Below, piece by piece: positions 5,137-25,142 of a stretch of 42,701 bases of DNA. The stretch comes from Planctomycetaceae bacterium. GTDB lineage: Bacteria > Planctomycetota > Planctomycetia > Pirellulales > Thermoguttaceae. The stretch is taken from NCBI GenBank assembly GCA_031282385.1, contig JAITDV010000477.1, positions 1 to 42,701 on the forward strand. Reading direction: 5' to 3'. The notes under the pieces were generated by a model that was given only the letters and a program-made list of their open reading frames with translations, ran no database searches and was not told the origin of the DNA. Position 1 is the stretch's first letter. The number at the start of each line of letters is the position of its first letter. The translations under genes and the position numbers were made by a program.

Positions 5137-5235
5137 AATGTTTAAAATAATTGGTGTTGTTTATTAATCGTTTGCAGCGAATTCTAAAAACTTCATTTAA
5201 CCCGCGCATTTTCAATAAAAATTTATTCGTGCAAT

Positions 5236-5340
5236 TTTAAACAGTTCACACTCTAAATTTCCTTTACCGCCGCCTGCTTACCTATCGGAAAGCAGGATTT
5301 TACGCTTTTGAGTCGCGCAACTTATAGTACGAACAGGATA
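5236..5340 (-). mobile_element. M1 MITE copy
   Basis: Full-length reverse-complement match, about 100 nt upstream of the histidine kinase start. Confidence 0.9.
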
Positions 5341-5365
5341 GTAATTTCACAAATAAGATAAATTA

Positions 5366-6589
5366 TCATAAGCTCCTCAATTTTTGGGCGTCAAGAATCG
5401 GTTTAATTGCCCGATCCAAAATGCCAAGAGTGTAAGCAATTGCTAGACCATAATTTGTGATAGGAATATTTGCGTTCTGACAATACATGATTCTGCTCAA
5501 CATTTCACGCCGATTCCACATACACGCGCCGCAATGAATCACCAAATCGCAGTTAAAATTATCTGTAAGAAATTCATGCCCGCGAACATGTTTAAATTCC
5601 AATTCACCGCCGACAAACTGGCGTAATAACTTTGGGATTTTTATTGTTCCAATGTCTTCTTCAATTGGATGATGAGTACACGATTCGGCAATCAAGACAC
5701 GTGAACCGGCTTTAAGATTTTTGATAGTTTTAGCCCCTTCAATCATAATTCCTAAATCCGCCTTTTGCCGCGCGAACAAAATTGAAAATGAAGTAAGCGG
5801 AATTGATTGCGGTACATCGGCTGAAACTTTAACGAATGCTTGCGAGTCTGTTACTACAAGCGCAGGCGGCGGCGAAATTCGTTGCAACACGTCCGCAAGT
5901 TGAGTATCTTGCACAACAACACAAGAAAGATGAGCATCAAGAACTTCACGGATTGCCTGAACTTGCGGCAATATAAGACGCCCTTTCGGCGCTTCCTTGT
6001 CAACCGGAACAACTAAAACAACCATCGACTCAGGCGGAACAAGATCAACAAGAATAGGAGGCGGCACCAAAAAATCGTCAGGAACAGATCGCAATAACAC
6101 CTCATGAAGTTCAACAATTCCACGACCTGTGATTGCATCAGTTTTTACGTAAGGAATTTTGAGTGATTCGAGTTCGTCCAGCGTTTCGGGACACGGCTGG
6201 GCAACATCAATTTTATTAAGAACATAAATAACAGGAACCGACCGATTCCTAAACGCAACAATTAAATCCAACTCAAATCGCGTAATTGGCGCGTCAGCAT
6301 TTGAAACAATTATTCCTATTTCAGTACGGTCAAGTACAGATTTAGTTTTTTGGATTCGCAATTCACCAAGTGCGCCTTCGTCGTCAACTCCAGCAGTATC
6401 GATCCAAAGAACCGGACCTATCGGCAAAAGTTCCATTGGCTTCTCAACAGGATCAGTTGTCGTACCTGCAGTTTCGGAAACAATAGATGTAGCCTGGTGT
6501 GTAAGTGCATTTAGCAATGATGATTTTCCAACGTTACGGCGTCCGAAAATTCCTAAATGGAGCCGGAAACCTTTGGGAGTTGTTTGCAT
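5366..6589 (-). CDS. hydF: [FeFe]-hydrogenase maturation GTPase HydF
   Basis: N-terminal GTPase motifs GRRNVGKSS, DTAG, NKID. C-terminal CTHH...HCGAC matches the HydF CxHx(n)HCxxC cluster-binding signature. Confidence 0.8.
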   Translation of the reverse strand: MQTTPKGFRLHLGIFGRRNVGKSSLLNALTHQATSIVSETAGTTTDPVEKPMELLPIGPVLWIDTAGVDDEGALGELRIQKTKSVLDRTEIGIIVSNADAPITRFELDLIVAFRNRSVPVIYVLNKIDVAQPCPETLDELESLKIPYVKTDAITGRGIVELHEVLLRSVPDDFLVPPPILVDLVPPESMVVLVVPVDKEAPKGRLILPQVQAIREVLDAHLSCVVVQDTQLADVLQRISPPPALVVTDSQAFVKVSADVPQSIPLTSFSILFARQKADLGIMIEGAKTIKNLKAGSRVLIAESCTHHPIEEDIGTIKIPKLLRQFVGGELEFKHVRGHEFLTDNFNCDLVIHCGACMWNRREMLSRIMYCQNANIPITNYGLAIAYTLGILDRAIKPILDAQKLRSL

Positions 6590-6610
6590 TTTTAACGGGT
6601 TGGTTGGGAA

Positions 6611-6717
6611 TTATGCTGACTCGTACTATGAATCGTTAGACTCAAGATCGTAAAAAACTGCTTTCCAATAACTAAACAGGAGGCAGTAAAGGAAATTTAA
6701 AGTGTGAGCAGTTTAAA
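6611..6717 (+). mobile_element. M1 MITE copy
   Basis: Full-length match; left end lies 22 nt from the hydF start codon. Confidence 0.85.
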
Positions 6718-6978
6718 CTATTCGCATTTGAATTTTTTGTAGTGTGCGCGGATTATTTCATAACGTCTGTTCAACACTATTGCGCTGATAGATTCTAACA
6801 TACGGTTGGTATAAATTAAACAAGTGTTGGGCAATATTTGTTATATTAACAACAATTCATATCTGAATTATCTGCGTGTGATCAAAAAAGACAACGCAGA
6901 TTATTACTTATTAATACCATTTTGTAAATAGTTTGCCGCACCAACAGACTTTAATCTCTAAACAATTGTGTTGTTATT

Positions 6979-7119
6979 AGACCTTTTCTCTAACCTAAAA
7001 ATACATCAACGCAACAAAAAACCTACAATAAAAAACCGCCTTTAACTCCTCCGAGACCACCCCTAACCCCTCCGAAGGAGAGGTCAGGGGTGGTCTCCTA
7101 CAGGTTAGCGAAAAGGTCT
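6979..7119 (-). mobile_element. M2 MITE copy (141 bp, hairpin partly deleted), ATT/ATT flanks
   Basis: TIRs AGACCTTTTC(T/G)CTAACCT at both ends; direct ATT at 6976-6978 and 7120-7122. Confidence 0.9.
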
Positions 7120-8154
7120 ATTTTTGGTTGAGTCTGCAAAATATTTTACAATTATACTTACAACAATCAACTGCAACGCATGATAAAGCATAATCGGTAA
7201 AAGCAAAATTCCTACACTAGTCATTCCTGCAAATATTACTTTTGACATTGTGATTCCATGCACCAATGATTTCTTTGAACAACAAAATAAAGCCGTGATT
7301 GTGTCCGTGTTATTGAACCGCATTGCCCTACAACATACCAACGTTATCCCGTAAACACAAAAAAACAGCAACAACATTCCTATACAAAGAAACACTAATT
7401 GTGAGATTGTGAAACCGGCGAATGCGTTGCCAGCGAATGATTTTGAAAACGAGGTATATACGACTAACAAAATCACACTTTGATCAAAATATTTTAAATA
7501 TTTTCTATTTCTTGCCGCAAAATTACTAAGCCGCCGGTTGAAACACATCCCGACACCAAGCGGGAGAACAATAATAATCAACAAATCACGAATCGCACTA
7601 ATAACAGAAAAATTATTCGTATTAGCAATATTGGTGATAAAAAGACTCATCCAAATTGGCGTAACAAAAACTCCGATTATACCTGAAATGCTCGCATTAA
7701 AAATTGCTGCTGTAATATTGCCGCCTGCAAGTGATACCATTACTACTGACGACGAAACCGTTGATGGCAAAACCGACGTATAAAAAATCCCAAGCCATAA
7801 TTCCTGCGTTAATTCTGTTACAAAAAAGTGGCGGACAACAAGAACAATTATCGGAAAAATCAAAAAAGTTATTAGTTGAATTATGACATGTAATTTCCAA
7901 TTTGCCATTTCGTTTTTGACAATTGCCGGATTCATGCCGATTCCGTAACAAAAAAACATAACCCAAAAACCGCACCCCGCAATTTGCCCCACAACACGAT
8001 TAGCCCCAACTTGCGGACTCACATACGCCAAAAAAATCGCCATTCCAAGAAACCAAACTATGTTCGGACGAACACTAAAACAAACACTCTTCAAATTTCG
8101 GTAACACAAAATCTCTAAAGCAAACTTCCCAATACGTAAGTTCTCACGAATCAT
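7105..8154 (-). CDS. bile acid:Na+ symporter (BASS, YfeH-like) family transporter
   Basis: Polytopic membrane protein. LPSTVSSSVVMVSLAGGNITAAIFNASISGIIGVFVTP resembles the YfeH/SBF signature. I prefer the ATG at 8154, because the longer ORF to 8304 starts on a GTG inside repeat R3. The last four codons and the stop lie inside an M2 element. Confidence 0.7.
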   Translation of the reverse strand: MIRENLRIGKFALEILCYRNLKSVCFSVRPNIVWFLGMAIFLAYVSPQVGANRVVGQIAGCGFWVMFFCYGIGMNPAIVKNEMANWKLHVIIQLITFLIFPIIVLVVRHFFVTELTQELWLGIFYTSVLPSTVSSSVVMVSLAGGNITAAIFNASISGIIGVFVTPIWMSLFITNIANTNNFSVISAIRDLLIIIVLPLGVGMCFNRRLSNFAARNRKYLKYFDQSVILLVVYTSFSKSFAGNAFAGFTISQLVFLCIGMLLLFFCVYGITLVCCRAMRFNNTDTITALFCCSKKSLVHGITMSKVIFAGMTSVGILLLPIMLYHALQLIVVSIIVKYFADSTKNRPFR

Positions 8155-8432: not shown

Positions 8433-8543
8433 TTATAATACTGTTCGTACTATCAATCGCGTGGCTCAAGATCGTAAAAGCCCGCTTTCTGATTGGTAAG
8501 CATGCGGAGATAAAGGAAATTTAAAATGTGAACAATTTCAAAA
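8433..8543 (+). mobile_element. M1 MITE copy
   Basis: Full-length match. Confidence 0.85.
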
Positions 8544-8657
8544 TAGACGATTATTTTTTTATTTTTTCGTCACGTCTGGACAACTTGGTATAAATCATAG
8601 ACAATACATTAATGAATCGCAATTATATCAAACACATTTTAGAATACGCAAAGCACG

Positions 8658-8778
8658 CTGTTGATACTATAAATCAGTTAATACTATATAAATTGCAAAT
8701 CTCAAAAGCGTAAAAGCAAGTTTTTCAATTCGATAAACTTGGGCAAGTTGCCAAAAATTCAAGTGTGAACAATTTAAA
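8658..8778 (+). mobile_element. M1 MITE copy (divergent)
   Basis: Duplicated left-end motif. The central stem is replaced by the compensated pair CAAGTTT (8717-8723) / AAACTTG (8735-8741). Confidence 0.75.
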
Positions 8779-9803: not shown

Positions 9804-9807
9804 CACA

Positions 9808-9914
9808 TTTTAAAACTGTTCACACTTGAAGTCCTGTTTACCTTCGCCTGCTTACCTACCTAAAAGCAGGCTTTTACGCTCTTGAGTCCCGCAATTTATC
9901 GTATGAGCAATGTA
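9808..9914 (-). mobile_element. M1 MITE copy
   Basis: Full-length reverse match starting 5 nt after the stop codon of the 8886-9803 gene. Confidence 0.85.
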
Positions 9915-10125
9915 GCAGTACATACACATTAAAATCGATTTTTCATTTTTTGTATCATTTCACTCGCTGACAGGATTTGTTTGAAATGATACTTTCATTT
10001 TTAGAGAATTTCTTTTACCGTTACATTTATTTGTTATGCCCCCTGTTGCTTTTTTGATTGGAATTGTAACAATGTTATTCCATGTTTTATTTTGACCGAG
10101 CTTTGATAATTATTCTTATATTTAC

Positions 10126-10231
10126 TATATGCTGATCGTACTGTAAGTTGCGTAACCCAATAGCGTAAAAACGCGTTTTCCGATAAGTAAGCAGGCAAAG
10201 GTAAACGGAATTTAAAGTGTGAACAGTTTAA
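10126..10231 (+). mobile_element. M1 MITE copy
   Basis: Full-length match ending 19 nt before the sigma-54 activator start. Confidence 0.85.
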
Positions 10232-10250: not shown

Positions 10251-12311
10251 TTGCCAAAGAAATTAATCGATATTTCCATGATACTAACCCAATCAGAAAA
10301 CGCTTATTTAATCCGAATCCAAAACGGTGAACAAAAAGAATTAGTCCCATTCAATTCCAATACGGAAGTAACTATTGGTCGATCTATCGACAATAAAATT
10401 TCGCTTCTCGATGACAGATGCAGCCGTTTCCACGCAAAAATTTATTTTGATTCAGGTCAATGGATTCTACAAGACCTTGGCAGCCGTAACGGAACATTTG
10501 TTGATGGCAAGCAAGTATTGTCTGAATCATTTGAGTTGCACCAAGACAGCCTGATTCAAATCGGACACTCAACTCTAAAATTCGGTTACGGTACACACGA
10601 AAATATAGAAACGGTTGCCAGTTTGGAAGAAGACGAAATCCATTCTGGAGTGTTCGGCATTACCGGCGATATGCTTCGCGCACCAGAAGCCAACAACAAT
10701 GAAACCGCAACAGGAATTTTACGGCGTACATCACAAACTTCCTTGCTAAAAGTTGACTCTGACGATAAACCAACCTCACAACTCACCACCCGCGCCGGTC
10801 ACGGCGCTGTTGAACTTTGTCGTCTTGCGTATCAACTTGGTAAAGCCGGAGAAATTAATCAAATTGCCCGTGCAGCAATCGAAGGCTTACTCAAAGCAAC
10901 CGGCGCAGACGGCGCCGGACTCTGGTTGTTTCCGTATAATTTGAAGTCATCACAAAACGCATCTGATATTCGGCTTGTTGCTAACGCTACACTTGAAGAT
11001 TTGCAATATAACGTTATTACCGAAGCAATTGTTCGTACAATTTTTGACAAAAAAGAAGCTTGCCTGTTCCATGAACCTAATATCGATTCCAAAACCGGTT
11101 CAAAATCAAAACAACGCGAAGGAAGCGTAAATACTCTGGTCGCCCCGATCCGTTTCCAAAACGGAATTCAAGGACTAATTCACCTCTACACGGTCAAAGA
11201 AAATAAACAATTCGACGACGCAGATTTACAATATACCCTTGCTGTCGCTGACACTCTTGGTGTCGCATTGGCAAACATGAATAAACAGAAAGAACTCGCC
11301 GCAAATCTAAATCAAGTTCGTAAAGAAAATAATAATTTACGCGAAATGTTACAAATGAACAGCGAAATAATCGGTAAAAGCGACGCAATGGCACAAGTAA
11401 ACAATTTGATTTTACGTGCCGCGTCAGGCAAGGCGACAGTTTTAATTCGCGGTGAAAGCGGTGTTGGCAAGGAGCTTATTGCAAGAGCAATTCATCTTGC
11501 AAGTCCGCGTAAATCAAAACCGCTTATTTGTATGAATTGTGCGGCAATTTCGGAGAACCTTCTTGAGAGCGAATTATTCGGACATGAAAGAGGCGCATTT
11601 ACCGGTGCAACTGAACGTAAAATTGGTAAATTTGAAGCGGCAAATACCGGTACACTTTTTTTAGATGAGATTGGAGAAATGAGCCCATCATTGCAAGCAA
11701 AATTTTTGCGTGTACTTGAAGGCAGTGCTTTTGAGCGGGTTGGCGGAAATTCGTCGATAACGGTTGACGTGCGGGTTTTGGCGGCAACGAATCGTGATTT
11801 GGAAAAGGAAGTTGCGGAAGGACGTTTTAGACATGATTTATTTTTCAGGTTGCGTGTACTGGAAATAATCGTGCCGCCGTTACGTAAAAGGGCAGAAGAT
11901 ATTCCTTTGTTGGCGGAGTATTTTTTGGATCGGTATTGTAAAGAAACGGGACGGCGTTATGACGGATTTGATTCGGAGGCAATGAGAGTATTGATTAGTT
12001 ACAGGTGGCCAGGGAATATTCGGGAGTTGAAGAATGTAATTGAGCGTGCAGTTGTCTTGGGCAACGGTCAATACATACAAGAACAAGATTTATTGCTCTC
12101 AACATTAAACACAACAGGCGAATCTGGAATCCGTGCAATCAATGAACATCAAGACGTATTTATTCCGCTATCTCTTGAAGACATGGAACGTAACCATATT
12201 ATACGCACTCTCGAACATCTGCAATGGAACAAAAGTCTAGTCGCAAAACAACTAGGAATAGAACGTACAACTCTTGATCGAAAAATCAAACGATACGGTC
12301 TGGAAAAATAA
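10251..12311 (+). CDS. sigma-54-dependent transcriptional activator (FHA - GAF - AAA+ - Fis-type HTH)
   Basis: FHA (GRSIDNKISL...SRFHA...GSRNGTFV). AAA+ with GESGVGKE, the ESELFGHERGAFTGA GAFTGA motif and FLDEIGE. C-terminal HTH (LVAKQLGIERTTLDRKIKRYGL). TTG at 10251; alternative ATG at 10278. Confidence 0.9.
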   Translation: MPKKLIDISMILTQSENAYLIRIQNGEQKELVPFNSNTEVTIGRSIDNKISLLDDRCSRFHAKIYFDSGQWILQDLGSRNGTFVDGKQVLSESFELHQDSLIQIGHSTLKFGYGTHENIETVASLEEDEIHSGVFGITGDMLRAPEANNNETATGILRRTSQTSLLKVDSDDKPTSQLTTRAGHGAVELCRLAYQLGKAGEINQIARAAIEGLLKATGADGAGLWLFPYNLKSSQNASDIRLVANATLEDLQYNVITEAIVRTIFDKKEACLFHEPNIDSKTGSKSKQREGSVNTLVAPIRFQNGIQGLIHLYTVKENKQFDDADLQYTLAVADTLGVALANMNKQKELAANLNQVRKENNNLREMLQMNSEIIGKSDAMAQVNNLILRAASGKATVLIRGESGVGKELIARAIHLASPRKSKPLICMNCAAISENLLESELFGHERGAFTGATERKIGKFEAANTGTLFLDEIGEMSPSLQAKFLRVLEGSAFERVGGNSSITVDVRVLAATNRDLEKEVAEGRFRHDLFFRLRVLEIIVPPLRKRAEDIPLLAEYFLDRYCKETGRRYDGFDSEAMRVLISYRWPGNIRELKNVIERAVVLGNGQYIQEQDLLLSTLNTTGESGIRAINEHQDVFIPLSLEDMERNHIIRTLEHLQWNKSLVAKQLGIERTTLDRKIKRYGLEK

Positions 12312-12620
12312 AGGCATAAGAGCAAGTTGTGAGGCTTTGATTGCTGCTAATGGAATTTGATAAATAAAGATTGTTTACTTGATTATTGTGTTGTTATTTT
12401 GTGTTGTTTTTGTAACACAAGCGATTTCTATAGTATCCTGCTTGATAGGTATTATTTTGGTGATACAATTTGCGGCTTGTTGTTTCTGAACTGTTTTGTA
12501 AAACGTTGCGCTAATTGCGGGACAATGGGAACAGGAGGCAATTATTCTTGTGAATAAATTTGCCCGAACTCAGAATACTTGAACGTAATTTACCTGACTC
12601 AATAAATCAATTATCCCGAA

Positions 12621-12745
12621 ATATCAACGTACATTTATACCAACGTACATTAGAAGTTCGGCGACGTTAAAAACGTAAAAAGCAAGGCTTCAATTAGTCA
12701 AAACTTGTACGGATTGGCGTAGTTTCAGGTATGAACAATTTCAAA
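12621..12745 (+). mobile_element. M1 MITE copy (divergent)
   Basis: Recognisable CGTAAAAAGC core, a CAAG/CTTG replacement stem and the right end ATGAACAATTTCAAA. Confidence 0.6.
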
Positions 12746-12779: not shown

Positions 12780-13463
12780 ATGACACAAATTAACCGTTAT
12801 CTCGATCACGCTGTTCTTGTTCCGCAATTCACACGGCAAGAAGCTATTGACTGGATCAAAAAAGGTGTTGAATACAAAGTTAAAACAGTTTGCGTTCGAC
12901 CTTGTGATATTGATATTGCGAAACAACTCACGGCAGGTTCGGAAACTGAAGTCTCTGTCGTTCTCGGTTTCCCGCACGGTACACAACTCACCGAATCCAA
13001 AACCGCCGAATCTGAACTCTATTGCAAAAAAGGTGTGCAGGAAATTGATATGGTCGCTAACTACGGCTGGATCAAAAGTGAACTTTGGGAAGAAGTAAAA
13101 GCTGATATTAAAGCTGTTGTAGATGTTGCACACAAGCATAATGTGTTGGTCAAAGTGATATTTGAAACCGCGCAACTAAACACCGAACAAATCATCAAAA
13201 CAACTGAATTGTCTATTGAAGCCGGTGCAGATTTCGTCAAAACATCCACAGGATTCAATGGCGACGGCGCAAAAGAAGAAGACGTCGATACAATGCTCAA
13301 AACCGCAAAAGGAAAAATCAAAGTTAAACCATCCGGCGGAATAAGAGATAACGCAAGAGCAAAATTATTTGTTGACAAAGGCGCACACCGACTCGGCGTA
13401 AATTGCACAAGTACTCCAAAAATTTGCGACGGTGGAACCACCGACACAAAAACCGGATATTAG
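12780..13463 (+). CDS. deoC: deoxyribose-phosphate aldolase
   Basis: LDHAVL, VCVRP, GFPHG, EIDMV, FVKTSTGF and KPSGGIR motifs typical of DeoC class I aldolase. Confidence 0.85.
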   Translation: MTQINRYLDHAVLVPQFTRQEAIDWIKKGVEYKVKTVCVRPCDIDIAKQLTAGSETEVSVVLGFPHGTQLTESKTAESELYCKKGVQEIDMVANYGWIKSELWEEVKADIKAVVDVAHKHNVLVKVIFETAQLNTEQIIKTTELSIEAGADFVKTSTGFNGDGAKEEDVDTMLKTAKGKIKVKPSGGIRDNARAKLFVDKGAHRLGVNCTSTPKICDGGTTDTKTGY

Positions 13464-13524
13464 TAAACTATTCACACTTTAAATTTCCTTCACCTTCGCC
13501 TGCTTAGCTATCGGAAAGCAGGTT
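13464..13524 (-). mobile_element. M1 truncated copy (right TIR through hairpin)
   Basis: Starts immediately after the deoC stop codon and abuts the next full copy. Confidence 0.75.
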
Positions 13525-13629
13525 TTTAAACTGTTCACACTTTAATTTCCTTTACCTTCGCCTGCTTACCTATTGGAAAGCAGGCTTTTATGCTCTTGGG
13601 TCACACAATTTATAATACGAGCGGTACAA
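13525..13629 (-). mobile_element. M1 MITE copy
   Basis: Full-length reverse match. Confidence 0.85.
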
Positions 13630-13650
13630 ATCAATTTCCAAAAATAAATT

Positions 13651-13727
13651 TTGTTCACAAATTTCCACGAATCTTACACAAATTTTCTTTGTGAAAATTT
13701 ATGTGGATTCGCGGATAAAGAAATGAG
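13651..13727 (+). repeat. R3 repeat (divergent), 27 nt upstream of the 13754 gene
   Basis: TTCACAAATTTCCACGAATCTTACACAAATTTTCTTTGTGAAAATTTATGTGGATTCGCGGATAAAGAAATGAG. Confidence 0.6.
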
Positions 13728-13753
13728 TATGTAATTATAGGTTAAATGAATAT

Positions 13754-15313
13754 ATGAGAAAGTTGGTATTTATTTCTGTTCCGGGTTTACGCAGAATAGA
13801 TGTTGAGCGATTACCCGAGCTTCGCGCAATGACTTCTAGTGGCGGCATGGCAACTCTTACGTCTGGATTTCCGGCTGTTACTTGTCCGGTACAATCAAAT
13901 ATGACAACAGGCGTTCGCCCTGATCAACATGGAATAGTTGCAAATGGTTTATATCTCAAAAACGTTGATAAAGTTGATTTGGAATTGCGGTTGGAGTCGA
14001 AATTGTCGGGTGCAAAATTGTTCGGTAATATTGTTTCGAGTTGTAATTTTGATCCTGAAATTAAGCAGCCGGTTTGGCCTAAATCTGAAAATTTGCCATA
14101 TATTGAGATGTGGACTTCACCGAATTCAGCGGTGGAATCGCCCCAAATCTGGGACGTGTTACGCGGTAAACAAGACAATACATATCAACGGCAATTTAGA
14201 ATTCGGCGGCGCAAAAGTATTAATACAGGTTTGCCAATATTTCAGTCCGTGCGTATAAACAGAAATTCAAGGGTGAACAAGTTAAAATCTGCGGTTTGGT
14301 TTGCGTTATTGAGTAAATTTTGTCTTGCCGATTACGTGTGCAATTTTGCGCCGATTCATAATCCTGACGGTAGTGAATCGTTGTGGTGTTATACCAGACC
14401 GTATCTTTTTTATGGCGGCTTGCGGGACAAGTTGGGGCATTTTCCTGTTCAAGGTTACTGGGGACCGCTGGCTGGACAATCCGCGTCGGAATGGATAGTT
14501 GATTCTGCGATTATCGGCGCAAATAAATTTAAGCCGGATTATTTTTACGTATATGTACCGCGTCTTGATTACACGCCGCAAAAATTCGGTGCAAACGCTT
14601 CGGAACTTTCGGCGGACTTGGCGGATTTGAATAAGTTGTTTGTCAAATTACGTGCGGGATTCACTGAAGCATTGGGTTGCGAACCGACTTGGTTGATTGC
14701 GGGCGAGTATGCGGTAACTGATGTTAGTTCTGTTGTTTATCCGAATCGGATTTTGCGGGAGATGGGCTTGCTGTCTATCGAAGAACGCAATGGGCAAGAG
14801 TATTTGTTGCCGAGCAAGTCGCGTTGTTTTGCACTGTGCGATCATCAATTTTCACACATCCATTTTAATGACGCCGATCCGCAATTGATGCAACGTGTTG
14901 CAGATAAATTCCGTAACGAGTCCGGGATTGACGAAGTGTTGGTCGGAGATGAAAGGGCAAAATATAACTTGACGCATCGGAGAAGCGGAGAAATCATACT
15001 CATTTCAGAACCAGACAGTTGGCAAGCGTATTATTTTTGGAATGATGATTCAAAAGTGCCGGAATACGCACGCAAAGTTGATATTCATCGTAAACCGGGT
15101 TATGATCCGGTGGAGCTTTTTTTTGATCGCGAAACAATGTCTGTACCGCTCGATGCAAATTTGATTCGCGGTTCTCACGGCGCACCGGCTCGCGATAATT
15201 CGCAGAAAACTGTTGTTCTTGCAAGTAAACCGGAATTACTTGCAGACAAAAAACAATTCGATGATATTGATATGTTCAATATCGTAAATCAATTCTTTAA
15301 GGGAAAAGTTTAG
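13754..15313 (+). CDS. alkaline-phosphatase superfamily / nucleotide pyrophosphatase-phosphodiesterase family protein
   Basis: N-terminal VFISVPGLR...SGFPAVTCPVQSNMTTG...HGIVANG is typical of the type I phosphodiesterase (Phosphodiest) family. The ORF contains a basic, low-complexity insert that looks MITE-derived (see findings). Confidence 0.6.
   Translation: MRKLVFISVPGLRRIDVERLPELRAMTSSGGMATLTSGFPAVTCPVQSNMTTGVRPDQHGIVANGLYLKNVDKVDLELRLESKLSGAKLFGNIVSSCNFDPEIKQPVWPKSENLPYIEMWTSPNSAVESPQIWDVLRGKQDNTYQRQFRIRRRKSINTGLPIFQSVRINRNSRVNKLKSAVWFALLSKFCLADYVCNFAPIHNPDGSESLWCYTRPYLFYGGLRDKLGHFPVQGYWGPLAGQSASEWIVDSAIIGANKFKPDYFYVYVPRLDYTPQKFGANASELSADLADLNKLFVKLRAGFTEALGCEPTWLIAGEYAVTDVSSVVYPNRILREMGLLSIEERNGQEYLLPSKSRCFALCDHQFSHIHFNDADPQLMQRVADKFRNESGIDEVLVGDERAKYNLTHRRSGEIILISEPDSWQAYYFWNDDSKVPEYARKVDIHRKPGYDPVELFFDRETMSVPLDANLIRGSHGAPARDNSQKTVVLASKPELLADKKQFDDIDMFNIVNQFFKGKV
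14181..14287 (+). mobile_element. candidate degenerate M1 copy embedded in frame in the 13754-15313 CDS
   Basis: Right end AGAAATTCAAGGGTGAACAAGTTAAAA matches GGAAATTTAAAGTGTGAACAGTTTAAAA at about 21/27 positions. GCGCAAAAG matches the GCGTAAAAG core. Total length is 107 nt as in canonical copies. Left half is weak. Confidence 0.35.
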
Positions 15314-15348
15314 GGGTTAGGAACGAAGCAGACGAAAACGCGGCGTTC

Positions 15349-15622
15349 TATACTGTTCGGACTACAATTTGTGTGACTCAAGAGTGTAAAAGCCCGCTTT
15401 CCGATAGGTAAGCAGGCGGTGGTAAAAGAAAATTAAAGTTGACCTTTTCGCTAACCTGTAGGAGACCACCCCTAACCCCTCCGAAGGAGGGGAATTATTC
15501 CCCACCTTCGGAGGGGTTAGGGGTGGTCTCGGAGGAGTTAAAGGCGGTTTTTCGTTGTAGGTTTTTTGTTGCGTTGATGTATTTTTAGGTTAGAGAAAAG
15601 GTCTAGTGTAAACAGTTTAAAA
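15349..15622 (+). mobile_element. M1 MITE copy split by an M2 insertion
   Basis: M1 left part 15349-15439 and right part 15605-15622, interrupted by M2 (15440-15604). Ends 3 nt before the YitJ-type gene start. Confidence 0.9.
15440..15604 (+). mobile_element. M2 MITE copy (165 bp) nested in M1, AGT/AGT flanks
   Basis: Near-consensus copy: AGACCTTTTCGCTAACCTGTAGGAGACCACCCCTAACCCCTCCGAAGGAGGGGAATTATTCCCCACCTTCGGAGGGGTTAGGGGTGGTCTCGGAGGAGTTAAAGGCGG...TTTTTAGGTTAGAGAAAAGGTCT. Confidence 0.95.
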
Positions 15623-15625
15623 ATC

Positions 15626-17473
15626 ATGTTGAAAAATAATTCGCGTAAATTTATTGAAACGTTAAATAGTAGATTGCTTGTTTTTGATGGGGCGATGGGG
15701 ACAGAGCTTTATCGGCAACATGTATTTACGAATCGTTGTTTTGAGGAGTTGAATTTATCTGAACCTGAATTGATAAGCGGAATTACCCGTTCTTATCGTG
15801 ACGCCGGAGCAGACGTGTTGACGACCAACACGTTTGGCGCAAATCGTATTCGTCTTGAGAAGTATGGTCTTGTGGAGCGTTTGGTGGAGATAAATCGTGC
15901 AGGTGCCGGTATTGCGCGTGAGGTTGCGGGTGATAGCGGTGAATTATTTGTTGCGGGTTCGGTGGGTCAATTTCCGGCGTCAGGTTACACGGACGATGAG
16001 ATTGAGACTTTCATTCTTGAGCAAGTTGATACTCTTTGGGAAGGCGGTGTTGACTTTATAATTTTTGAGACTCAATTATCGCGTGAAGCAATGAGACGTT
16101 GTGCGGCGGCGATGCTCAAACGGGTTGAAATTCCGTTTGTGCTTTCTTGTGCGGTAATTTCAGGCAATGAATCAGCGGCGGGCGAATCTGTGCCGCGTCT
16201 TTTGATGCCGTTTGGGGATGATGTCGGCAAGCCTGTAGCGATGGGCTTGAATTGCGGTTCGGGACCGGAAGGGCTTTTGCAAGCTGCTGAAATTGCGGTC
16301 AAGGTTAATCCGTTGCCGCTTATTGTTCAACCCAATGCGGGAATACCCAAAGAATTTGATGGTCGTCAGATTTATTATTCGTCGCCGGAGTATGCGGCTT
16401 CTTATGCAATGCGGTTGGTGTCATTGGGAGTAGCTGCGGTGGGTGGTTGTTGTGGAATTTCGCCGGAGCATATTCGTGAAATTGCAAAGATGATCAAACC
16501 GCTTGCCAAAGCTCGATCAACACATTCGATTTTGCAAGCAGTTGAGTCAGACGTGACGGAACAACCGGAGTTATTGTTTCAGGAACGGTCGCGGTTTGCG
16601 TGGAAACTTTCGCGGCGTGAATGGACGACTAGTGTTGAAATTGTGCCGCCGCGCGGATATGACATGGAAAGTACGATTGAGAAAAGTAAAAAATTGCATC
16701 GTCAAGGAATAGATGCGATTAATTTACCGGATGGTCCCAGAGCAAGTTCAAGGGTTTCGTCGATTGCGGTTGCGAGCAGGATTTTGAGCGAGGCGCATAT
16801 TGAGCCGATTTTACATTTTTGTTGTCGGGACAAAAATCTGATTGGGATGCAAGCTGATCTTCTTGGTTGTGCGGCGTTGGGGATTAGAAATTTACTTTTT
16901 ATTACGGGTGATCCGCCGAAACTTGGTTCGTATCCGAATGCAACTGGTGTTTTTGATACTGATTCAATTGGAATTTGTTCATTGCAACGCCGTCTTAATC
17001 GTGGTGTTGATCTTGGAGGTCAAGCGATTGTGCCGCCGACGAATGCTGTAATTGGGGTTGGTCTTGATCCGAATGCGTTGGATCGGAAACGTGAGGTTGA
17101 CAGATTTAGGCAAAAGATTGATGCAGGTGCAAATTTCGCAATTACGCAACCAGTATTTGATCCTGAAGCGTTGATTAGATTTTTGGATGAGGTTGGTGAT
17201 TGTCCGATTCCGATTTTAGCGGGGATATGGCCATTGGCAAGTTTTCGCAATGCGGAATTTATGCAGAATGAAGTTCCGGGCGTGATTGTTCCTGATGCGA
17301 CAATGAACAGGATGGAAGCGGTTTCAAAACGATCAAAGGAAGAACAAGTTATGGTTGGAATTGAGATCGCCGGTGAAATGATTTCGGTAGTCAAAGACAG
17401 AGTGAACGGCGTGCAAGTTAGCGCACCTTTTGGAAAAATAGAAATTGCCCTAGCTGTATTAAACAACACATAA
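15626..17473 (+). CDS. bifunctional homocysteine S-methyltransferase / 5,10-methylenetetrahydrofolate reductase (YitJ-type)
   Basis: N-terminal LVFDGAMGTELY...GGCCG homocysteine-methyltransferase domain fused to a C-terminal MTHFR domain (SVEIVPPRG...LFITGDPP...ITQPVFD). Confidence 0.85.
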   Translation: MLKNNSRKFIETLNSRLLVFDGAMGTELYRQHVFTNRCFEELNLSEPELISGITRSYRDAGADVLTTNTFGANRIRLEKYGLVERLVEINRAGAGIAREVAGDSGELFVAGSVGQFPASGYTDDEIETFILEQVDTLWEGGVDFIIFETQLSREAMRRCAAAMLKRVEIPFVLSCAVISGNESAAGESVPRLLMPFGDDVGKPVAMGLNCGSGPEGLLQAAEIAVKVNPLPLIVQPNAGIPKEFDGRQIYYSSPEYAASYAMRLVSLGVAAVGGCCGISPEHIREIAKMIKPLAKARSTHSILQAVESDVTEQPELLFQERSRFAWKLSRREWTTSVEIVPPRGYDMESTIEKSKKLHRQGIDAINLPDGPRASSRVSSIAVASRILSEAHIEPILHFCCRDKNLIGMQADLLGCAALGIRNLLFITGDPPKLGSYPNATGVFDTDSIGICSLQRRLNRGVDLGGQAIVPPTNAVIGVGLDPNALDRKREVDRFRQKIDAGANFAITQPVFDPEALIRFLDEVGDCPIPILAGIWPLASFRNAEFMQNEVPGVIVPDATMNRMEAVSKRSKEEQVMVGIEIAGEMISVVKDRVNGVQVSAPFGKIEIALAVLNNT

Positions 17474-17527
17474 AAAATTCGTCTTACTTTCATGCGAATT
17501 TTGTATTTGGTTGCGATGATACGAAAT

Positions 17528-18238
17528 TTAGTTGCGGGTTGTTATAACGGTTGCGTTCCAGAGGAAATCGTAGAGCGGTTTCAACAATATAAAATTGCCA
17601 ATCAGAAAATCAACAAGTTTTGCCGAAAACAGAATTTTATCCGGTTTACGGTTTCCAAGAACGGCAATAGATTTGCTTTGATACCATTTATCAATTATTG
17701 CGGGATGCTCGGACGGAATGCGGCGTTTATAGCAATCGGATTCTAGTTTAAGATTTCTGGTTCGTTGTATTGGTTCAATAATTCTACGAAATTGTTCTGG
17801 ATTTTCGTCAATCATTCTGCGAAAATTCCGCATTGTTGTTGCTTGTGCGGAGTACATGCCCATTCCGAACATGTATTCGTACTCATCAAATTGAAAAAAA
17901 TAAGTAGGCATTGCTGTCCAACACTCAACATTACGCTTGAAAGCAAACCAAACTCGCGGACGATACGGAGACTTGTCCGCAGAAAAACGTGTGTCCCGAT
18001 AAATACGCGAAACAACACGATGCGGCGACGTTATCACCAACGAATCAAGTTCTGAAATCATTGGTGAAATTGTTTGTACAAGTTGTTTCATTGGATCGGA
18101 AACAAAACGAACATATCGATCCCGATTATCGGAAAACCATTCGCGGTTATTGTGGCGGCTCAAATCATGGAAAAAATTAATTCCAGATTGGGAAAATCCA
18201 TTGAACAATGAAGTATCAAAACTTACTTTAGCTGACAT
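17528..18238 (-). CDS. DUF2461 (TIGR02453) family protein
   Basis: FFHDLSRHNNREWF...YRDTRFSADKSPYRP pattern characteristic of this conserved hypothetical family. Confidence 0.65.
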   Translation of the reverse strand: MSAKVSFDTSLFNGFSQSGINFFHDLSRHNNREWFSDNRDRYVRFVSDPMKQLVQTISPMISELDSLVITSPHRVVSRIYRDTRFSADKSPYRPRVWFAFKRNVECWTAMPTYFFQFDEYEYMFGMGMYSAQATTMRNFRRMIDENPEQFRRIIEPIQRTRNLKLESDCYKRRIPSEHPAIIDKWYQSKSIAVLGNRKPDKILFSAKLVDFLIGNFILLKPLYDFLWNATVITTRN

Positions 18239-18324
18239 ATTAAAATATTGTAACTATTCAGCCGATGGATGTCTTCAATCCAAAAAAAACACAATTGTTT
18301 GGAAAGTTAGTGTCTCCAAAGGAT

Positions 18325-18355
<31 letters not shown>

Positions 18356-18374
18356 ATTCTTACAAATTCTGCAA

Positions 18375-21300
18375 TTATAATGTTGCCAGTAGTGAGCGTA
18401 CGCGGATTTTTACTGCGCCTAGTTGTGCGCCTTCGTCAATTTTCAGCAACGTGTGTGTTTTGCCTTTGTATGCAAGTATTTCTTCAACCTGTTCTGCGGT
18501 TACAGCGTCAAGTCCGCAGCCAAATGAATTTAATTGAATTAGTTGGAAACCGGCGGGTTGATTTGCTACGAATGTTGCTGCTCTATACAATCTTGCATGA
18601 TAACTCCATTGATCAACTACTCGCAACGGAAACATCAATTCGCTGCCTAAGTGGGCGATTGAGTCTCCTGATAAAACTGCTGCGCCGCTTGAAACAATCA
18701 ATTCAGGTATTCCATGATGTATCATCGGGTCTAAATGATACGGACGTCCAACCAACACAATTACTGTCAGTTCTTTATTCGACTCGCATGATTTTACAAA
18801 CTCTTCACCTTTGTCCCGAACTTCTTTGCGGTAATTATTCTGCAGCTCTATTGCTTTTGCCAACGCGTTTTTGATTTCGCGGTATGAAACATCGAAACCG
18901 TGAAACTCTTCGTAAAGACGTTTGGTTAAAATTTTCGCATCCGCCGCCGGCAAAAAAGGCGAAATAAATTCAATTCCGCCATCACGTATTTCATCTATAT
19001 TCAATCGCAATAATTCAGGATAAGAACCTACTACCGGACAATTATGTGTAAAAAGAGTATCCGAAAATTCACGTTGTTCAAATGGTAATGCCGGATGAAA
19101 TATCCGTTTCACGCCGCGTTCAATTAAATTTATAATATGACCATGTGCTAACTTGGCAGGAAAACAAAGCGTTTGCGACGGAATGCTGCTCAAGCCTTTG
19201 TTGTACAATTTAGGTGTTGAAGGTGCGGACAACACGACTCTGAATCCTAATTCCGTTAAAAAACCGAACCAAAACGGATAAATCTCGAACATATTCAAAA
19301 TACGCGGTACTCCGATCTCGCCGCGTATCGACTTGTGCAAGTCAAGCGGCTCGTAGAAATTAAACAAGCGGTCGTATTGATACCGGAAAAAATTCGGTAA
19401 TTGAACACGGCTTGAATTTTCAGTCCACACAACTGAATCTGTAATCGAAGGTGAATTTTCTGTTACAGTAATTGGTTTCGTGGGGGCAACATTTCCAACG
19501 GCGGATTTTAATTTCGTATTAGGAACCGGATCAATTGCAAATTTACTCGGACCGCGTTCACATTTATTACCTGACACAAATACGCGGTTATCTGGAAAAG
19601 AGTGAACGGCAAGCAGACATTTATTTGAGCATCCGGGACAACGTTTTAATTTTGAATCCATTTTGAAGGCGGGCAAATCATCGCGTGAAATAATTCCGGA
19701 AATCAATTTATACGGTTTATCGGCTGCACGTTCACGGGCAATAAGCGATGCGCCGAATGCTCCCATCATGCCGGCAATATCTGTGCGATAAACTTCGCGA
19801 TCTATTAAAAATTCAAGCGCACGAAGTACTGCGGGGTTGTTGAATGTGCCGCCTTGAACCATGATGTTTTTACCGAGTTCGTTGAAGTCGGTTATTTTTA
19901 ATACTTTGTAGAGCGCATTTTTCGCAACTGAATAAGCCAAACCCGCGGAAATATCTGCAACTGAAGCATTTTCTTTTTGGGCTTGTTTTACTTTTGAATT
20001 CATGAAAACTGTGCAGCGTGTACCGAGGTCAATAGGCGACGCCGCGAACAACGCTTCTTTGGCAAAAGAAACAATATCGTATCCAAGCGAACCCGCAAAC
20101 GTTTCAAGAAAAGAACCGCAACCGGAAGAACACGCTTCGTTCAGAATTATTTTGTCAACTTTATCATTTTTGATACCAATACATTTTATATCTTGTCCGC
20201 CGATATCAAGAATAAACGAAACATCAGGCACGAAATATTTTGCCGCGCGGAAGTGAGCAAGCGTTTCAACTTCGCCGTCATCGATTCCCAACGCGGCTTT
20301 GAGTATGGTTTCGCCGTAACCTGTAACGCATCCGCGGCGAAGCCGTGATTCTCTTGGAATTTGGGAGTAAATATCTGCAATAATCTTTAGGACGGCGTTG
20401 ATTGGATCGCCTTCGTTGGGACCGTACCAGGTTGCGAGTATTTGTGAATCTGCATTGATCAAGACGGCTTTAGTTGTTGTTGAGCCTGCGTCAATTCCAA
20501 GAAACAAGTCGCCTGATGCTGTTGAAATATCGGCGCGTTTGGCTTTGAATGAATTGTGTCGTGCTGTAAATTTAGTAAATTCTTCTTGCGACATAAACAA
20601 TGGTGCAAGTCGCATTGTTTCTTCGTAGTTATTGTGGTCGAGTACGTTATTGACGCGGCAGCAGAGTTCGGCGGCGGGGATTGCGCGGTCGTTTTCGGAA
20701 AGAATTGCAGCTCCGAGCGCAACATAATAATGTGAATCTTCAGGCACGATTATACTGTTTTCATTCAAGCCTAATGTTTCTGTAAATCGTTTACGCAATT
20801 CGGGCAAAAAATGTAGAGGTCCGCCCAAAAAAGCCGTAGGACCGCATATTTTACGTCCGCAAGCGAGTCCGCCGATGGTTTGATCGACTACGGCTTGCAG
20901 AACGCTTGCGGCAACATCTTCGCGGGAAGCGCCTTCGTTTAGCAGCATGGTAACATCGGACTTGGTGAATACTCCGCAGCGTGCTGCTATTGGGTAAATT
21001 GTTTTATGGCGTGAGGCGAGATCGTTTATACCTGCAGCGTCGGTTTTGAGAGTTACGGCAATTTGGTCAATAAATGCACCGGTACCGCCAGCGCAAGTTT
21101 CGTTCATACGTTGGTCAATACTTCCTTCGAGAAAAGTTACTTTTGCGTCTTCGCCGCCTAATTCGATTGCGACTGTGGTTTCGGGGATGAATGTTGTGAT
21201 TGCGTGAAGAGCTGCAACAACTTCTTGAACAAACGGGATTCCTAATTTTTGGGAAACGCCGATTCCTGCGGAACCTGTCATGGCGAGTGTGAAAGCTTTA

Positions 21301-21497
21301 TCTGGGAAAACTTGGAAAACTTCGGATACAAGTTTAGCCAACGCTTGAAAAACACCGGAAAAATGACGAGTGTAACGCGACCAAACTATTTCGCCTCGTA
21401 CCGCGTCAAAAACTACTGCTTTCACTGTCGTTGAACCAACATCCAATCCAAGCCGGAATTGAGAAATTTCTTCAGTACCTGATTTCATTGACAACAT
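18375..21497 (-). CDS. acyl-CoA dehydratase activase-related protein (two BcrAD/BadFG ATPase domains plus a DUF2229-like C-terminal domain)
   Basis: Two acetate/sugar-kinase-type ATPase repeats (LGLDVGSTTVKAV and LGIDAGSTTTKAV, each followed by a GG(E/Q)D motif), then a long C-terminal domain as in CoA-substrate-specific enzyme activases. Confidence 0.75.
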   Translation of the reverse strand: MLSMKSGTEEISQFRLGLDVGSTTVKAVVFDAVRGEIVWSRYTRHFSGVFQALAKLVSEVFQVFPDKAFTLAMTGSAGIGVSQKLGIPFVQEVVAALHAITTFIPETTVAIELGGEDAKVTFLEGSIDQRMNETCAGGTGAFIDQIAVTLKTDAAGINDLASRHKTIYPIAARCGVFTKSDVTMLLNEGASREDVAASVLQAVVDQTIGGLACGRKICGPTAFLGGPLHFLPELRKRFTETLGLNENSIIVPEDSHYYVALGAAILSENDRAIPAAELCCRVNNVLDHNNYEETMRLAPLFMSQEEFTKFTARHNSFKAKRADISTASGDLFLGIDAGSTTTKAVLINADSQILATWYGPNEGDPINAVLKIIADIYSQIPRESRLRRGCVTGYGETILKAALGIDDGEVETLAHFRAAKYFVPDVSFILDIGGQDIKCIGIKNDKVDKIILNEACSSGCGSFLETFAGSLGYDIVSFAKEALFAASPIDLGTRCTVFMNSKVKQAQKENASVADISAGLAYSVAKNALYKVLKITDFNELGKNIMVQGGTFNNPAVLRALEFLIDREVYRTDIAGMMGAFGASLIARERAADKPYKLISGIISRDDLPAFKMDSKLKRCPGCSNKCLLAVHSFPDNRVFVSGNKCERGPSKFAIDPVPNTKLKSAVGNVAPTKPITVTENSPSITDSVVWTENSSRVQLPNFFRYQYDRLFNFYEPLDLHKSIRGEIGVPRILNMFEIYPFWFGFLTELGFRVVLSAPSTPKLYNKGLSSIPSQTLCFPAKLAHGHIINLIERGVKRIFHPALPFEQREFSDTLFTHNCPVVGSYPELLRLNIDEIRDGGIEFISPFLPAADAKILTKRLYEEFHGFDVSYREIKNALAKAIELQNNYRKEVRDKGEEFVKSCESNKELTVIVLVGRPYHLDPMIHHGIPELIVSSGAAVLSGDSIAHLGSELMFPLRVVDQWSYHARLYRAATFVANQPAGFQLIQLNSFGCGLDAVTAEQVEEILAYKGKTHTLLKIDEGAQLGAVKIRVRSLLATL

Positions 21498-21741
21498 TTG
21501 AAATTATTGTTATTTCGTTGATATACCGAAAGCCCGAATGTGAGCAACTAAAAAATAAAACAGTCAGTGGAATTTTCGTAACAGTATCATTATTTTTGAA
21601 GTGGAGATGCTGTGTGACCGAGTGGTTGTTTATATTTTAGCGTTTCCGTGATGATGTATCAATCGCCTACGGGATGAGGGTTAGATTTTGGAACTATTTG
21701 GTTTCAATATTTTTTGTTTTATTGGGGAATTTATTTGTAAT

Positions 21742-21933
21742 AGACCTTTTCGATAACCTGTAGGAGACCATCCCTGACTCCTCCGAGGGGCGGGAATTAT
21801 TCCCATTACGCGGAGGCGTATTCTTATTCCTCACCTTCGGAGGGGTTAGTGGGGGGATCGGAGGAGTTAAAGGCAGTTTTTCGTTGTGGTTTTTTTGTTG
21901 TGTTGATGTATTTTTAGGTTAGCGAAAAGGTTT
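21742..21933 (+). mobile_element. M2 MITE copy (192 bp, enlarged irregular hairpin), AAT/AAT flanks
   Basis: Both TIRs present, tail conserved, direct AAT on both sides. Confidence 0.85.
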
Positions 21934-22067
21934 AATGTAAGCCGTGGGGGCGGTGAAATGGAAAAACTCTTTATTTTTTGCCAAGTTGCGGATATGTGGG
22001 AAACGTGGCGGATTTGAAATTAATTTAAGTTATCAAAATTGGTCTTGTGTTGTTTGGCGGGAAATTG

Positions 22068-22145
22068 TTATACTTCGTTTGGGGCGGATTTCTGGCGGGT
22101 GTGCGGTTGGTGGTAAATGAAATTTAAAATGTGAACGGTGTAAAA
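22068..22145 (+). mobile_element. M1 degenerate copy
   Basis: TTATACTTCG left end and GGTAAATGAAATTTAAAATGTGAACGGTGTAAAA right end; the middle is replaced or degraded. Confidence 0.5.
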
Positions 22146-22154
22146 TAATTGAAA

Positions 22155-23255: not shown

Positions 23256-23470
23256 TCATTTTGAGTTGTTTTTGAGTCGGGTCTTATTTGTTTTTGGCGT
23301 ATTCTAATTTTTGTTGTGTTTTGGCGCGTCTTTGGTCAAAATGGATTGATAGGCTAATTTGATTGCGGCACGTGTTTTTTTGTAATATTTCTGTGGTGCA
23401 ATTATATATTGTGTTGGAATTAGTTTTTTGTTCTTTTTTTGCAAAATTTAATTATCGGGGAGTAGAAAAT

Positions 23471-23583
23471 AGACCTTTTCGATAACCTGTAGGAGACCAC
23501 CCCTAACCCTTCCGAATGTGGGGAATTATTCCACTCCTTCGGAGGTGGCAATGGTGGTCTCTTACAGGTTAACGAAAAGGTCT
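23471..23583 (+). mobile_element. M2 short palindromic variant (113 bp), AAT/AAT flanks
   Basis: Left arm and hairpin are directly followed by an inverted copy of the left arm; the T-rich tail is missing. Confidence 0.85.
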
Positions 23584-23672
23584 AATACTAATTTCTCCAT
23601 ATTAGCTAATAACTTTCATCTATACGCTAATTAATCGGAAAAATCACCTAACCTCTGGTATTTACATTTCTC

Positions 23673-24335: not shown

Positions 24336-24520
24336 AATGAAATCTCCTTTCGGTTAAAATCAATTGAAATTAAAATTAGACATGAAAGTGAAAAAACTAA
24401 TTAATTTTAATGTACATTATAACAAATAAATTTCAAAACGAAATAGATGACTTTTAGAAAAAAACAATAGTAATACAAAAAAAGACAAAAAAAAATTGCA
24501 AAAAGACAGATCAAAATCCT

Positions 24521-24815
24521 ATTAAAACAGAAAAATTACTAAACAAAACCTAAAATTTCCGAAAAAAGACCGAATTTTTTCAGATTAAAACAGAAAAAGT
24601 TTAGAACAAGACCGGAAAATTTTAGATTAAAACAGAAACATAATAGATTAAAACCGGATTGTTTCAAATTATAACCGGAAATTTTTAGATTAAAACCGGA
24701 ATAGTTTGAATTAAAACAGGAATGCAGTAGATTAAGACAGGAAAATATTAAAATAATAGAGGAATTTCTTCGATTAAAACAGGAATATTTTGAATTTATA
24801 CAGGATTATTTAAGC
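24521..24815 (+). repeat. 14-unit degenerate direct-repeat array with 21-bp period
   Basis: The motif ATTAAAAC(A/C)GGAA and variants starts at 24521, 24543, 24563, 24584, 24604, 24626, 24647, 24668, 24689, 24710, 24731, 24752, 24773 and 24794. Confidence 0.85.
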
Positions 24816-25142
24816 CGTAAGTGTAACTGTAAATGATTTTGTTATATGTAATTAATTTGACAATATATCTTGTTCAAAAACAACTTTGTGCAGTTGTTAA
24901 CTGCATTGCAATTGAGACAAAATACAACAATTACTACTCAACCAAAGTGCGGGCATATTATATTTCATGTTTCGGTTGAATTTCTCTTGAGGGGATAATT
25001 TTGATTTTAGTATTTTCAAATCAAATTTCTACAGGATTATACAAATTGCCCTTTTCATTCTTAAAGAAAAATATACAATTGTACTAAAAATAATCAAATT
25101 TGAGTCATACGCATATTCATTAAAATCACAACTATTTAGATT

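Follow-up and report, generated by a model that had tools for sequence, protein, structure and literature searches.

Codon usage in Borrelia burgdorferi is set by strand-specific mutational bias, and the penicillin-binding protein genes of Streptococcus and Neisseria are mosaics that arose by recombination between diverged lineages. In Lawsonia intracellularis, too, strand-specific mutational bias is reported to be the main determinant of codon usage (PMC2671203), and local reversals of GC skew have been taken to document past inversions of genes (Merrikh & Merrikh 2018, PMC6220195). The present analysis concerns a gene for a sigma-54-dependent transcriptional activator (10251–12311, + strand) on a contig from a Planctomycetaceae bacterium (GenBank assembly GCA_031282385.1, contig JAITDV010000477.1, positions 1 to 42,701), in which the bases preferred at silent third positions change strand polarity inside an intact open reading frame (ORF). 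The whole 42.7-kb contig, which carries 24 genes, is referred to below as the window; the loci of its relatives are designated L081 to L090 and are each at most 22 kb long.

As in the inversion-record framework (PMC6220195), DNA of opposing skew is taken here to have evolved in the other orientation and then to drift in skew toward a new equilibrium, as is the case in L081 and L082. Unlike the whole genes or fragments treated there, for which inversion is the explanation, the present reversal lies within an intact ORF. A reversal in this position cannot be an inversion, as the original prediction for this DNA had rightly argued; what it marks is either a tract of recombination or mutation acting locally. 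The sub-genic scale and the density of the reversals are new relative to that framework, which is the closest one published; literature searches gave no description of skew flips within genes or, for planctomycetes, of a mosaic of this kind. With Borrelia and Lawsonia the locus has in common two mirror-image dialects of G/T-ending and C/A-ending codons that are set by strand rather than by expression. In those genomes the dialect of a gene is given by whether its strand is at present leading or lagging, and this holds over a whole replichore, whereas here both dialects occur on each strand and even within single genes. Like the penicillin-binding protein mosaics, the activator gene contains blocks of a few hundred base pairs with another history inside an intact gene, and the block edges vary by relative; there the donors are known and divergence jumps, whereas here no donor is known, divergence is uniform, and the strand signature alone marks the block. 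The product resembles the enhancer-binding proteins of the NtrC family in its AAA+ sigma-54 domain, GAFTGA motif, Walker A and B motifs, and Fis-type helix-turn-helix (HTH) domain. Unlike the NtrC family with its receiver domain, it has an N-terminus composed of FHA and GAF domains, a difference without bearing on composition.

The third-position flip in the activator gene

The third-position GC skew (GC3 skew) of the coding strand, taken in sliding windows, runs between −0.3 and −0.8 up to about codon 360, at about +0.1 to +0.2 over codons 380–470, at +0.55 to +0.85 over codons 460–600, and at about −0.45 afterwards. The block of reversed skew was delimited as the maximal G3−C3 segment (codons 407–598, nt 11469–12044), by cumulative sums (CUSUM; codons 379–603, nt 11385–12059), and with a two-state hidden Markov model (HMM; nt 11404–12046). 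The patch as defined by the HMM (11404–12046, + strand, codons ~385–599) is of the G3/T3 type, that is, keto-rich, and encodes the AAA+ core and most of the lid. Its left edge is gradual and its right edge sharp, with a drop within about 10 codons; the strongest sub-block (codons 475–598, 11673–12044, + strand) has a G3:C3 ratio of 42:7 over codons 481–600. The preceding part of the gene (10251–11403, + strand), which encodes the FHA and GAF domains and the linker, is of the C3/A3 type, that is, amino-rich, with a GC3 skew of about −0.5. The 3′ part (12047–12311, + strand), which encodes the end of the lid and the HTH domain, is likewise assigned to the C3/A3 type by skew, HMM, and log-likelihood ratio, and this character may be due in part to a general shift at the 3′ ends of genes (see below).

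The four 60-nt base counts given with the original prediction were reproduced exactly (10741–10800, G 9 and C 23; 11761–11820, G 24 and C 8; 11941–12000, G 20 and C 6; 12061–12120, G 9 and C 14). Seven of the eight C residues of 11761–11820 do lie in CpG, which is trivial, because such a C occupies the first or second codon position and the next base is the preferred G. The codon preferences that had been described are mostly right: the avoidance of CTC and CTA stood (0 of 22 leucine codons in the block, 17 of 58 outside), and TTG turned out not to be exclusive to the block (45% versus 21% of leucine codons).

The flip persisted once the encoded amino acid was controlled for, both at degenerate sites and under synonymous shuffling. 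At four-fold sites the G:C ratio is 25:5 in the block and 18:56 elsewhere in the gene (Fisher 3.5e-8). Purine-ending two-fold codons end in G in 47% of cases in the block versus 15% elsewhere in the gene (p=1.9e-5), and pyrimidine-ending ones end in T in 83% versus 50% (p=3.2e-5). None of 5000 shuffles, in which synonymous codons were exchanged between sites for the same residue, matched the observed segment score (40, shuffle maximum 20); when shuffling was restricted further to the same amino acid and the same next base, the flip still stood at z=5.9. A context model trained on the other genes predicted an offset of +0.06 bits per codon, versus about +0.8 observed. Amino acid composition as the cause is ruled out by these three controls, and the third-position flip is confirmed as a genuine change at synonymous sites.

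Three further candidate causes were rejected. A bisulfite-like or C-deamination artefact is at odds with the intact C at codon positions 1 and 2, and changes from A to G would be needed as well. Translational or accuracy selection at conserved residues is contradicted by invariant and variable AAA+ columns being alike and by the conserved HTH domain being of the C type. Lagging equilibration, that is, slower silent evolution in the patch, was rejected because silent divergence is not lower there.

At the four-fold sites of all window genes the third base also depends on its neighbours: it is A in 43% of cases before A and T in 43% before T, G in 36% and C in just 9% before C, and T in 51% after a second-base T.

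Mirror-image codon dialects in the window and in related loci

The genes of the window are of two classes, G3/T3 with GC3 skews of +0.2 to +0.6 and C3/A3 with −0.2 to −0.5, and both classes are present on both strands of the contig. The patch had been described as having evolved, by its appearance, under the opposite strand bias, and this description is borne out: its composition equals that of the G3/T3 genes, that of the flanks equals that of the C3/A3 genes, and the two are near mirror images. The mean codon log-likelihood ratio is +0.35 bits for the patch (0.34–0.66 for G3-class genes), and −0.31 and −0.37 for the 5′ and 3′ parts, respectively (−0.23 to −0.40 for C3-class genes). The four-fold composition is A32 C6 G31 T31 in the patch and A34 C25 G8 T33 in the rest of the gene; in the same comparison, 47% versus 13% of purine-ending codons have G and 80% versus 48% of pyrimidine-ending codons have T. 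The two gene classes differ from each other in the same manner as the patch and the rest of the gene, and the values predicted from mirror symmetry were found to within a few percentage points.

The flip had originally been tied to the AAA+ domain of this one gene, a restriction that did not hold. Intragenic switches with p<0.001 were detected in five of the 24 window genes; the activator gene is the strongest case (z=7.4), followed by the genes at 18375–21497, 22149–23255, 41697–42656, and 38981–41518. The two-state HMM divides the 42.7 kb into 27 polarity segments, many of them with borders within genes, and polarity reverses every ~1.6 kb on average. Relatives' loci with 35–44% G+C swing likewise, including inside gyrB of L082, and relatives at about 50% G+C or above have weak skews and no patches. 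The activator flip is one of many patches in a genome group that is finely patchworked by two mirror-image mutation signatures.

Non-coding DNA has the same polarity. Over 18 intergenic regions the GC skew of the + strand tracks the GC3 polarity of the flanking genes (Pearson r=0.74, p=4e-4; Spearman 0.63, p=0.005). The sign of the + strand skew is kept at four of the five places in the window at which genes change strand; among the relatives it is kept at one such place (L081) and not at another (L085). The mirror symmetry and the polarity of non-coding DNA argue for strand-asymmetric mutation rather than translational selection, and the two dialects therefore point to a strand-asymmetric mutational signature rather than to codon selection.

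A position effect is superimposed on the dialects: the 3′ ends of genes move toward C/A-ending codons in 39 of 46 genes of the window and L081–L088 (Wilcoxon p=1.3e-8). The last ~40–60 codons are affected: the GC3 skew, +0.11 at the middle of genes, is −0.27 over the final 40 codons. Over the final 60 nt the sense strand has an excess of A (AT skew +0.27) and a G+C content lowered to 0.35, and beyond the stop codon the effect is absent.

Such a pattern might also be written in place, by strand-specific mutation or repair acting on patches of 0.15–5 kb, for example through transcription-linked damage to the non-template strand, with the polarity set by local sense and antisense transcription units. 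The fine scale and pervasiveness of the mosaic, the local polarity of intergenic DNA, and the systematic 3′-end effect would all suit a process of this kind. However, that effect stops at the stop codon, and promoter- or terminator-like sites are not in excess, with none at the patch edges. The ORF list contains no antisense ORF of at least 80 amino acids inside the activator gene. Whole housekeeping genes are strongly of the C3/A3 type (for example L085 3131–5035, 634 codons, skew −0.80), so that antisense transcription would have to dominate in them.

Ancestry of the patch and its proposed source

Orthologue DNA was compared for ten sequences with 61–92% protein identity. Lineage-specific change was scored among seven close orthologues as a silent third-position change unique to one lineage, with at least five of the other six in agreement. 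The majority-rule third bases of the seven have a GC3 skew of −0.60 in the N-terminal part, +0.41 over codons 375–474, +0.33 over codons 475–598, and −0.55 in the C-terminal part. Because this consensus is already mosaic, the flip was inherited from the ancestor of the clade rather than acquired recently in the window lineage; judged from these orthologues, it predates that lineage. The same result bears on an assembly chimera, in which the AAA+ segment of a co-occurring related strain would have been stitched into the contig. Every sequence comes from a metagenome assembly, several related orthologues belong to one project and two of them to one sample, and chimeric joins tend to occur in conserved domains. 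On the other hand, the consensus of seven independently assembled orthologues is equally mosaic, the exact runs shared with the sampled orthologues reach at most 35 nt, which is too short for the usual final k-mers, and ~26 switches in one 42.7-kb contig would be implausibly many mis-joins. A chimera is considered very unlikely.

The neighbouring genes differ in all ten orthologues with readable neighbours; gene order has consequently been shuffled down to single genes, and gene orientation therefore varies among lineages and over time. The polarity map is individual to each orthologue as well, and the patch edges vary. The original claim that the block coincides with the AAA+ module accordingly stands as a good match to the Pfam limits in the window sequence, the edges being different among the orthologues.

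Recent silent changes toward G/T versus A/C number 10:42 in L081, 54:5 in L082, and 24:9 in L084, and in each of these lineages the AAA+ region and the flanks are alike (Fisher 0.49, 0.15, and 1.0, respectively). L081 is eroding the patch, with 0:13 in codons 375–474. The window lineage has 17:7 toward G/T, again with patch and flanks alike (not significant). Since the changes in L081, L082, and L084 agree in patch and flanks, the pressure is gene-wide and its direction depends on the lineage. This is expected from a changed orientation of the gene, and a process restricted to the patch would hardly give it, so that the patch-wise strand-specific mutation raised in the original prediction is disfavoured. 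The variation of the patch maps among orthologues, alongside that of the neighbouring genes, would still fit mutation or repair acting in place; with recent changes alike inside and outside the patch in three lineages, and with one of these erasing it, that process is judged unlikely. Direction is segment-specific in other lineages: in L086 the N-terminal part has 24:3 versus 4:12 in the AAA+ region (p=4e-5), in L085 the core has 1:9 versus 9:0 in the C-terminal part (p=1e-4), and L087 also differs by segment (p=0.004). Segmental events therefore recur.

The explanation favoured here, and held tentatively, combines an orientation-dependent, gene-wide strand pressure and a shuffled gene order with the replacement, long ago, of part of the gene through homologous recombination. 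Within this clade of low-G+C planctomycetes, silent sites would gain G and T on one strand and C and A on its complement, and a pressure of this type is presumably linked to replication. With gene order shuffled, the orientation of a gene would vary by lineage and time, and with it the direction in which its coding strand is pushed. Because an orientation-dependent pressure covers the whole gene, a sub-genic flip requires a segment-specific event: an allele of the gene that had long been oppositely oriented may have supplied, by homologous recombination, a new AAA+-coding segment (or new flanks). The replacement would have taken place before the seven sampled close relatives diverged, and the window lineage would have inherited the patch.

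The relationships of the individual segments are suggestive of recombination at the patch. In the N- and C-terminal parts the window is closest to L081, over codons 375–474 to L085 (95% bootstrap at codon positions 1+2, though on just 3 versus 7 differences), and over codons 475–598, among the sampled relatives, to L082 rather than L081. Derived residues 493, 502, and 576 are common to the window and the L082 protein (P0004) only, and residues 40, 45, 279, and 447 to the window and the L081 protein (P0002) only; the change of partner along the gene gives a Fisher value of ~0.03. Islands of 26 nt identical to L081 lie at codons 375–383 and 605–613, that is, at both patch edges. Recent import from a sampled relative was rejected, since local identity does not exceed ~92% between any two sequences, or 89% where the window is one of them.

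The donor named in the original prediction was a paralogue that had evolved under the opposite strand bias, which was weighed here as an oppositely oriented sigma-54 activator from which the AAA+ domain would have been converted. The AAA+ domain is indeed the part that such paralogues have in common, and the patch matches the limits of this Pfam domain in the window sequence. However, the patch has 91–96% protein identity to the AAA+ region of the orthologues, above that of the rest of the gene, whereas for the remaining activators retrieved the best segment does not exceed ~54%, a divergence too great for conversion. No other copy or fragment was found in the window by tblastn (E≥1.3). The patch edges vary by orthologue, and unrelated genes have similar patches. 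Downstream of the activator gene, 12329–12711 contains short inverted, partly colinear matches to 10854–11412 in the N-terminal half of the gene (best match 37 nt, 76%; alignment score equalled in just 1 of 200 shuffles), a marginal similarity that would be in keeping with a paralogous source; an inverted downstream pseudogene as donor was rejected, since the similarity is marginal and a trace at the protein level is absent. Conversion from a paralogue is regarded as highly improbable. Recombination as such is retained from the original proposal in that the patch is still best derived from an orthologous allele, and the interpretation given there is, overall, partly supported.

Several observations weigh against recombination between oppositely oriented alleles under a replication-linked pressure. 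The composition-robust tests of recombination are weak: MaxChi at codon positions 1+2 was not significant (p=0.4–0.7), and the value obtained with all sites (p=0.01, codons 491–518) could be explained by convergence of composition. A donor lineage was not found, the best match to the patch DNA being L082 with 83.4%, followed by L081 with 82.2%; the protein clusters contained no sequence closer than the known orthologues, the genome contig search gave a best match of 58%, and the scan of metagenome contigs returned no relative. Divergence does not jump at the block edges, synonymous codon identity being 45–70% all along the gene; this uniformity fits an old event but gives it no positive support. 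Between alleles of opposite type the majority of silent sites differ and exact shared runs do not exceed 35 nt, so that recombination between them is expected to be rare; the contig nevertheless has numerous switches (27 segments in 42.7 kb). Polarity borders do not coincide significantly with copies of the dispersed repeat described below (4 of 26 within 150 nt, p=0.38). With respect to the replication link, the HMM fits equally well when the states describe the polarity of the + strand (27 segments, 1427.9 bits) and when they describe the type of the coding strand (31 segments, 1428.8 bits), and the contig contains the two polarities in about equal amounts, unlike a stable replichore.

Finally, in 10 of 11 orthologues, which represent ~4 independent lineages, the G-type character is stronger in the AAA+ region than in the N-terminal half, and the profiles correlate near saturation of third positions (window versus L088, r=+0.62 at a distance of 0.57). 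A modest but persistent local cause could lie behind this tendency, which would also suit mutation in place. It bears as well on persistent silent-site selection on the AAA+ region, acting on mRNA structure, Rho sensitivity, or translation rate. The correlation of the profiles would be in line with such selection, as would the move of gene 3′ ends to C/A-ending codons; codons of this kind yield RNA of low pairing potential. However, invariant and variable AAA+ residues are in the same dialect (0.222 versus 0.217), the HTH region is equally conserved yet of the C type, and over codons 375–474 orthologues with 95% protein identity are opposite in skew (+0.1 in the window, −0.6 in L081). Amino acid and neighbour context predict almost no offset, non-coding DNA has the same polarity, the two classes are mirror images, and the count of 10 in 11 rests on the ~4 independent lineages mentioned. 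Selection of this kind is rated as quite unlikely.

A broader reading, regarded as improbable, is that the clade carries a heritable fine patchwork (150 bp to 5 kb, inside intact genes) that goes beyond the processes known. It would be produced either by strand-asymmetric mutagenesis or repair in place, or by intense sub-genic exchange among genomes whose genes are constantly re-oriented.

Gene surroundings, dispersed repeats, and implications

The activator gene was defined as a 686-aa ORF from a TTG at 10251, with the support of Pfam and orthologues; the database gene call starts at an ATG at 10278 and comprises 677 aa. The predicted protein contains an FHA domain (residues 40–105), a GAF domain (residues 202–340), the AAA+ sigma-54 interaction domain Sigma54_activat (PF00158, residues 373–539, E=1.8e-69), AAA_lid_14 (residues 545–618, Pfam), and the Fis-type HTH domain HTH_8 (residues 641–682, E=5.8e-16). 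The translation carries the Walker A sequence GESGVGKE, GAFTGA, and the Walker B sequence LFLDEIGE. By its sequence the product thus combines the three hallmarks of a bacterial enhancer-binding protein, namely the AAA+ domain, the motifs, and a C-terminal HTH domain. Its named database relatives are mostly from metagenome-assembled genomes of Planctomycetaceae. Downstream lies a gene for a deoC-family aldolase (12780–13463, + strand), which is of the C3/A3 type (GC3 skew −0.49) and has the polarity of the activator flanks. Nearby genes encode DUF1559, DUF1553/1549, and DUF1501 domains; together with the database relatives, these domains identify the organism as an uncultured planctomycete, with a G+C content of ~40%.

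A dispersed repeat of ~105 nt occurs in 16 copies in the window, with 70–84% identity between copies, exclusively in intergenic DNA and in both orientations. The copies lie mostly in the first 15.5 kb (230–316, 780–886, 2315–2416, 2585–2690, 5232–5335, 6620–6717, 8442–8544, and 8688–8778). Immediately upstream of the activator gene the copies 9804–9915 (+) and 10133–10229 (−) form an inverted pair, adjacent to a polarity border at ~9760, and right after the deoC stop codon the copies 13465–13528 and 13523–13622 (+ strand) form a tandem pair, with a polarity border near 13456. Further copies were located at 15348–15426, 32059–32158, and 35167–35260, with fragments near 35124–35146 and 35251–35269. 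A hairpin (GCCTGC...GCAGGC), in which some copies have compensatory changes, precedes a TTTT in the repeat, whose short inverted ends are ACTGTTC and GAACAGT. No Rfam match was obtained for it. It may be an element similar to repetitive extragenic palindromes (REP) or miniature inverted-repeat transposable elements (MITE), and may serve as a substrate for rearrangement. Dispersed repeats of other families border genes in L081, L082, L084, and L085, and several genes lie between near-identical copies: in L085, direct repeats (2703–2804 and 5374–5475, 95%) lie around a gene of GC3 skew −0.80, and in L081, inverted repeats (12226–12428 and 13906–14106, 89%) bracket a gene. The sole Rfam match in the window at the gathering threshold is a tRNA gene (888–962, −), which adjoins a copy of the ~105-nt repeat. 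In L088 a 48-nt tandem repeat (6243–6526, ~6 copies, 89–94% identity) lies within a large gene (5225–7852, −).

A stretch of 2.4 kb (24336–26728) contains no ORF longer than 70 aa and has 24–32% G+C over most of its length. It includes two 21-nt tandem arrays, one at 24569–24811 (~11 copies, 65–75% matches) and a strongly C-rich one at 26405–26595 (9.1 copies, 92% matches). The stretch separates a G-type domain of the + strand (13459–23782) from a C-type domain (26823–37000), a sign change resembling that at a terminus. In L089, from a relative with 49% G+C, a 364-aa gene of the DnaA family (10560–11654) is situated two genes from the activator orthologue; no clear skew switch is visible near it.

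Nothing unusual is implied for the regulator itself. Two cautions apply to the use of such signals: per-gene skew taken as an inversion record averages over mosaics, and a shared patch composition can mimic or mask recombination signals in standard tests. If intense sub-genic exchange did take place, the strand signature would be a built-in tracer of recombination tracts. With GC3 skews of up to ±0.8, it is strong enough to reveal the ancestry of silent sites on a scale of a few hundred base pairs, and recombination, gene re-orientation, and the speed of compositional re-equilibration could become directly measurable in uncultured planctomycetes.

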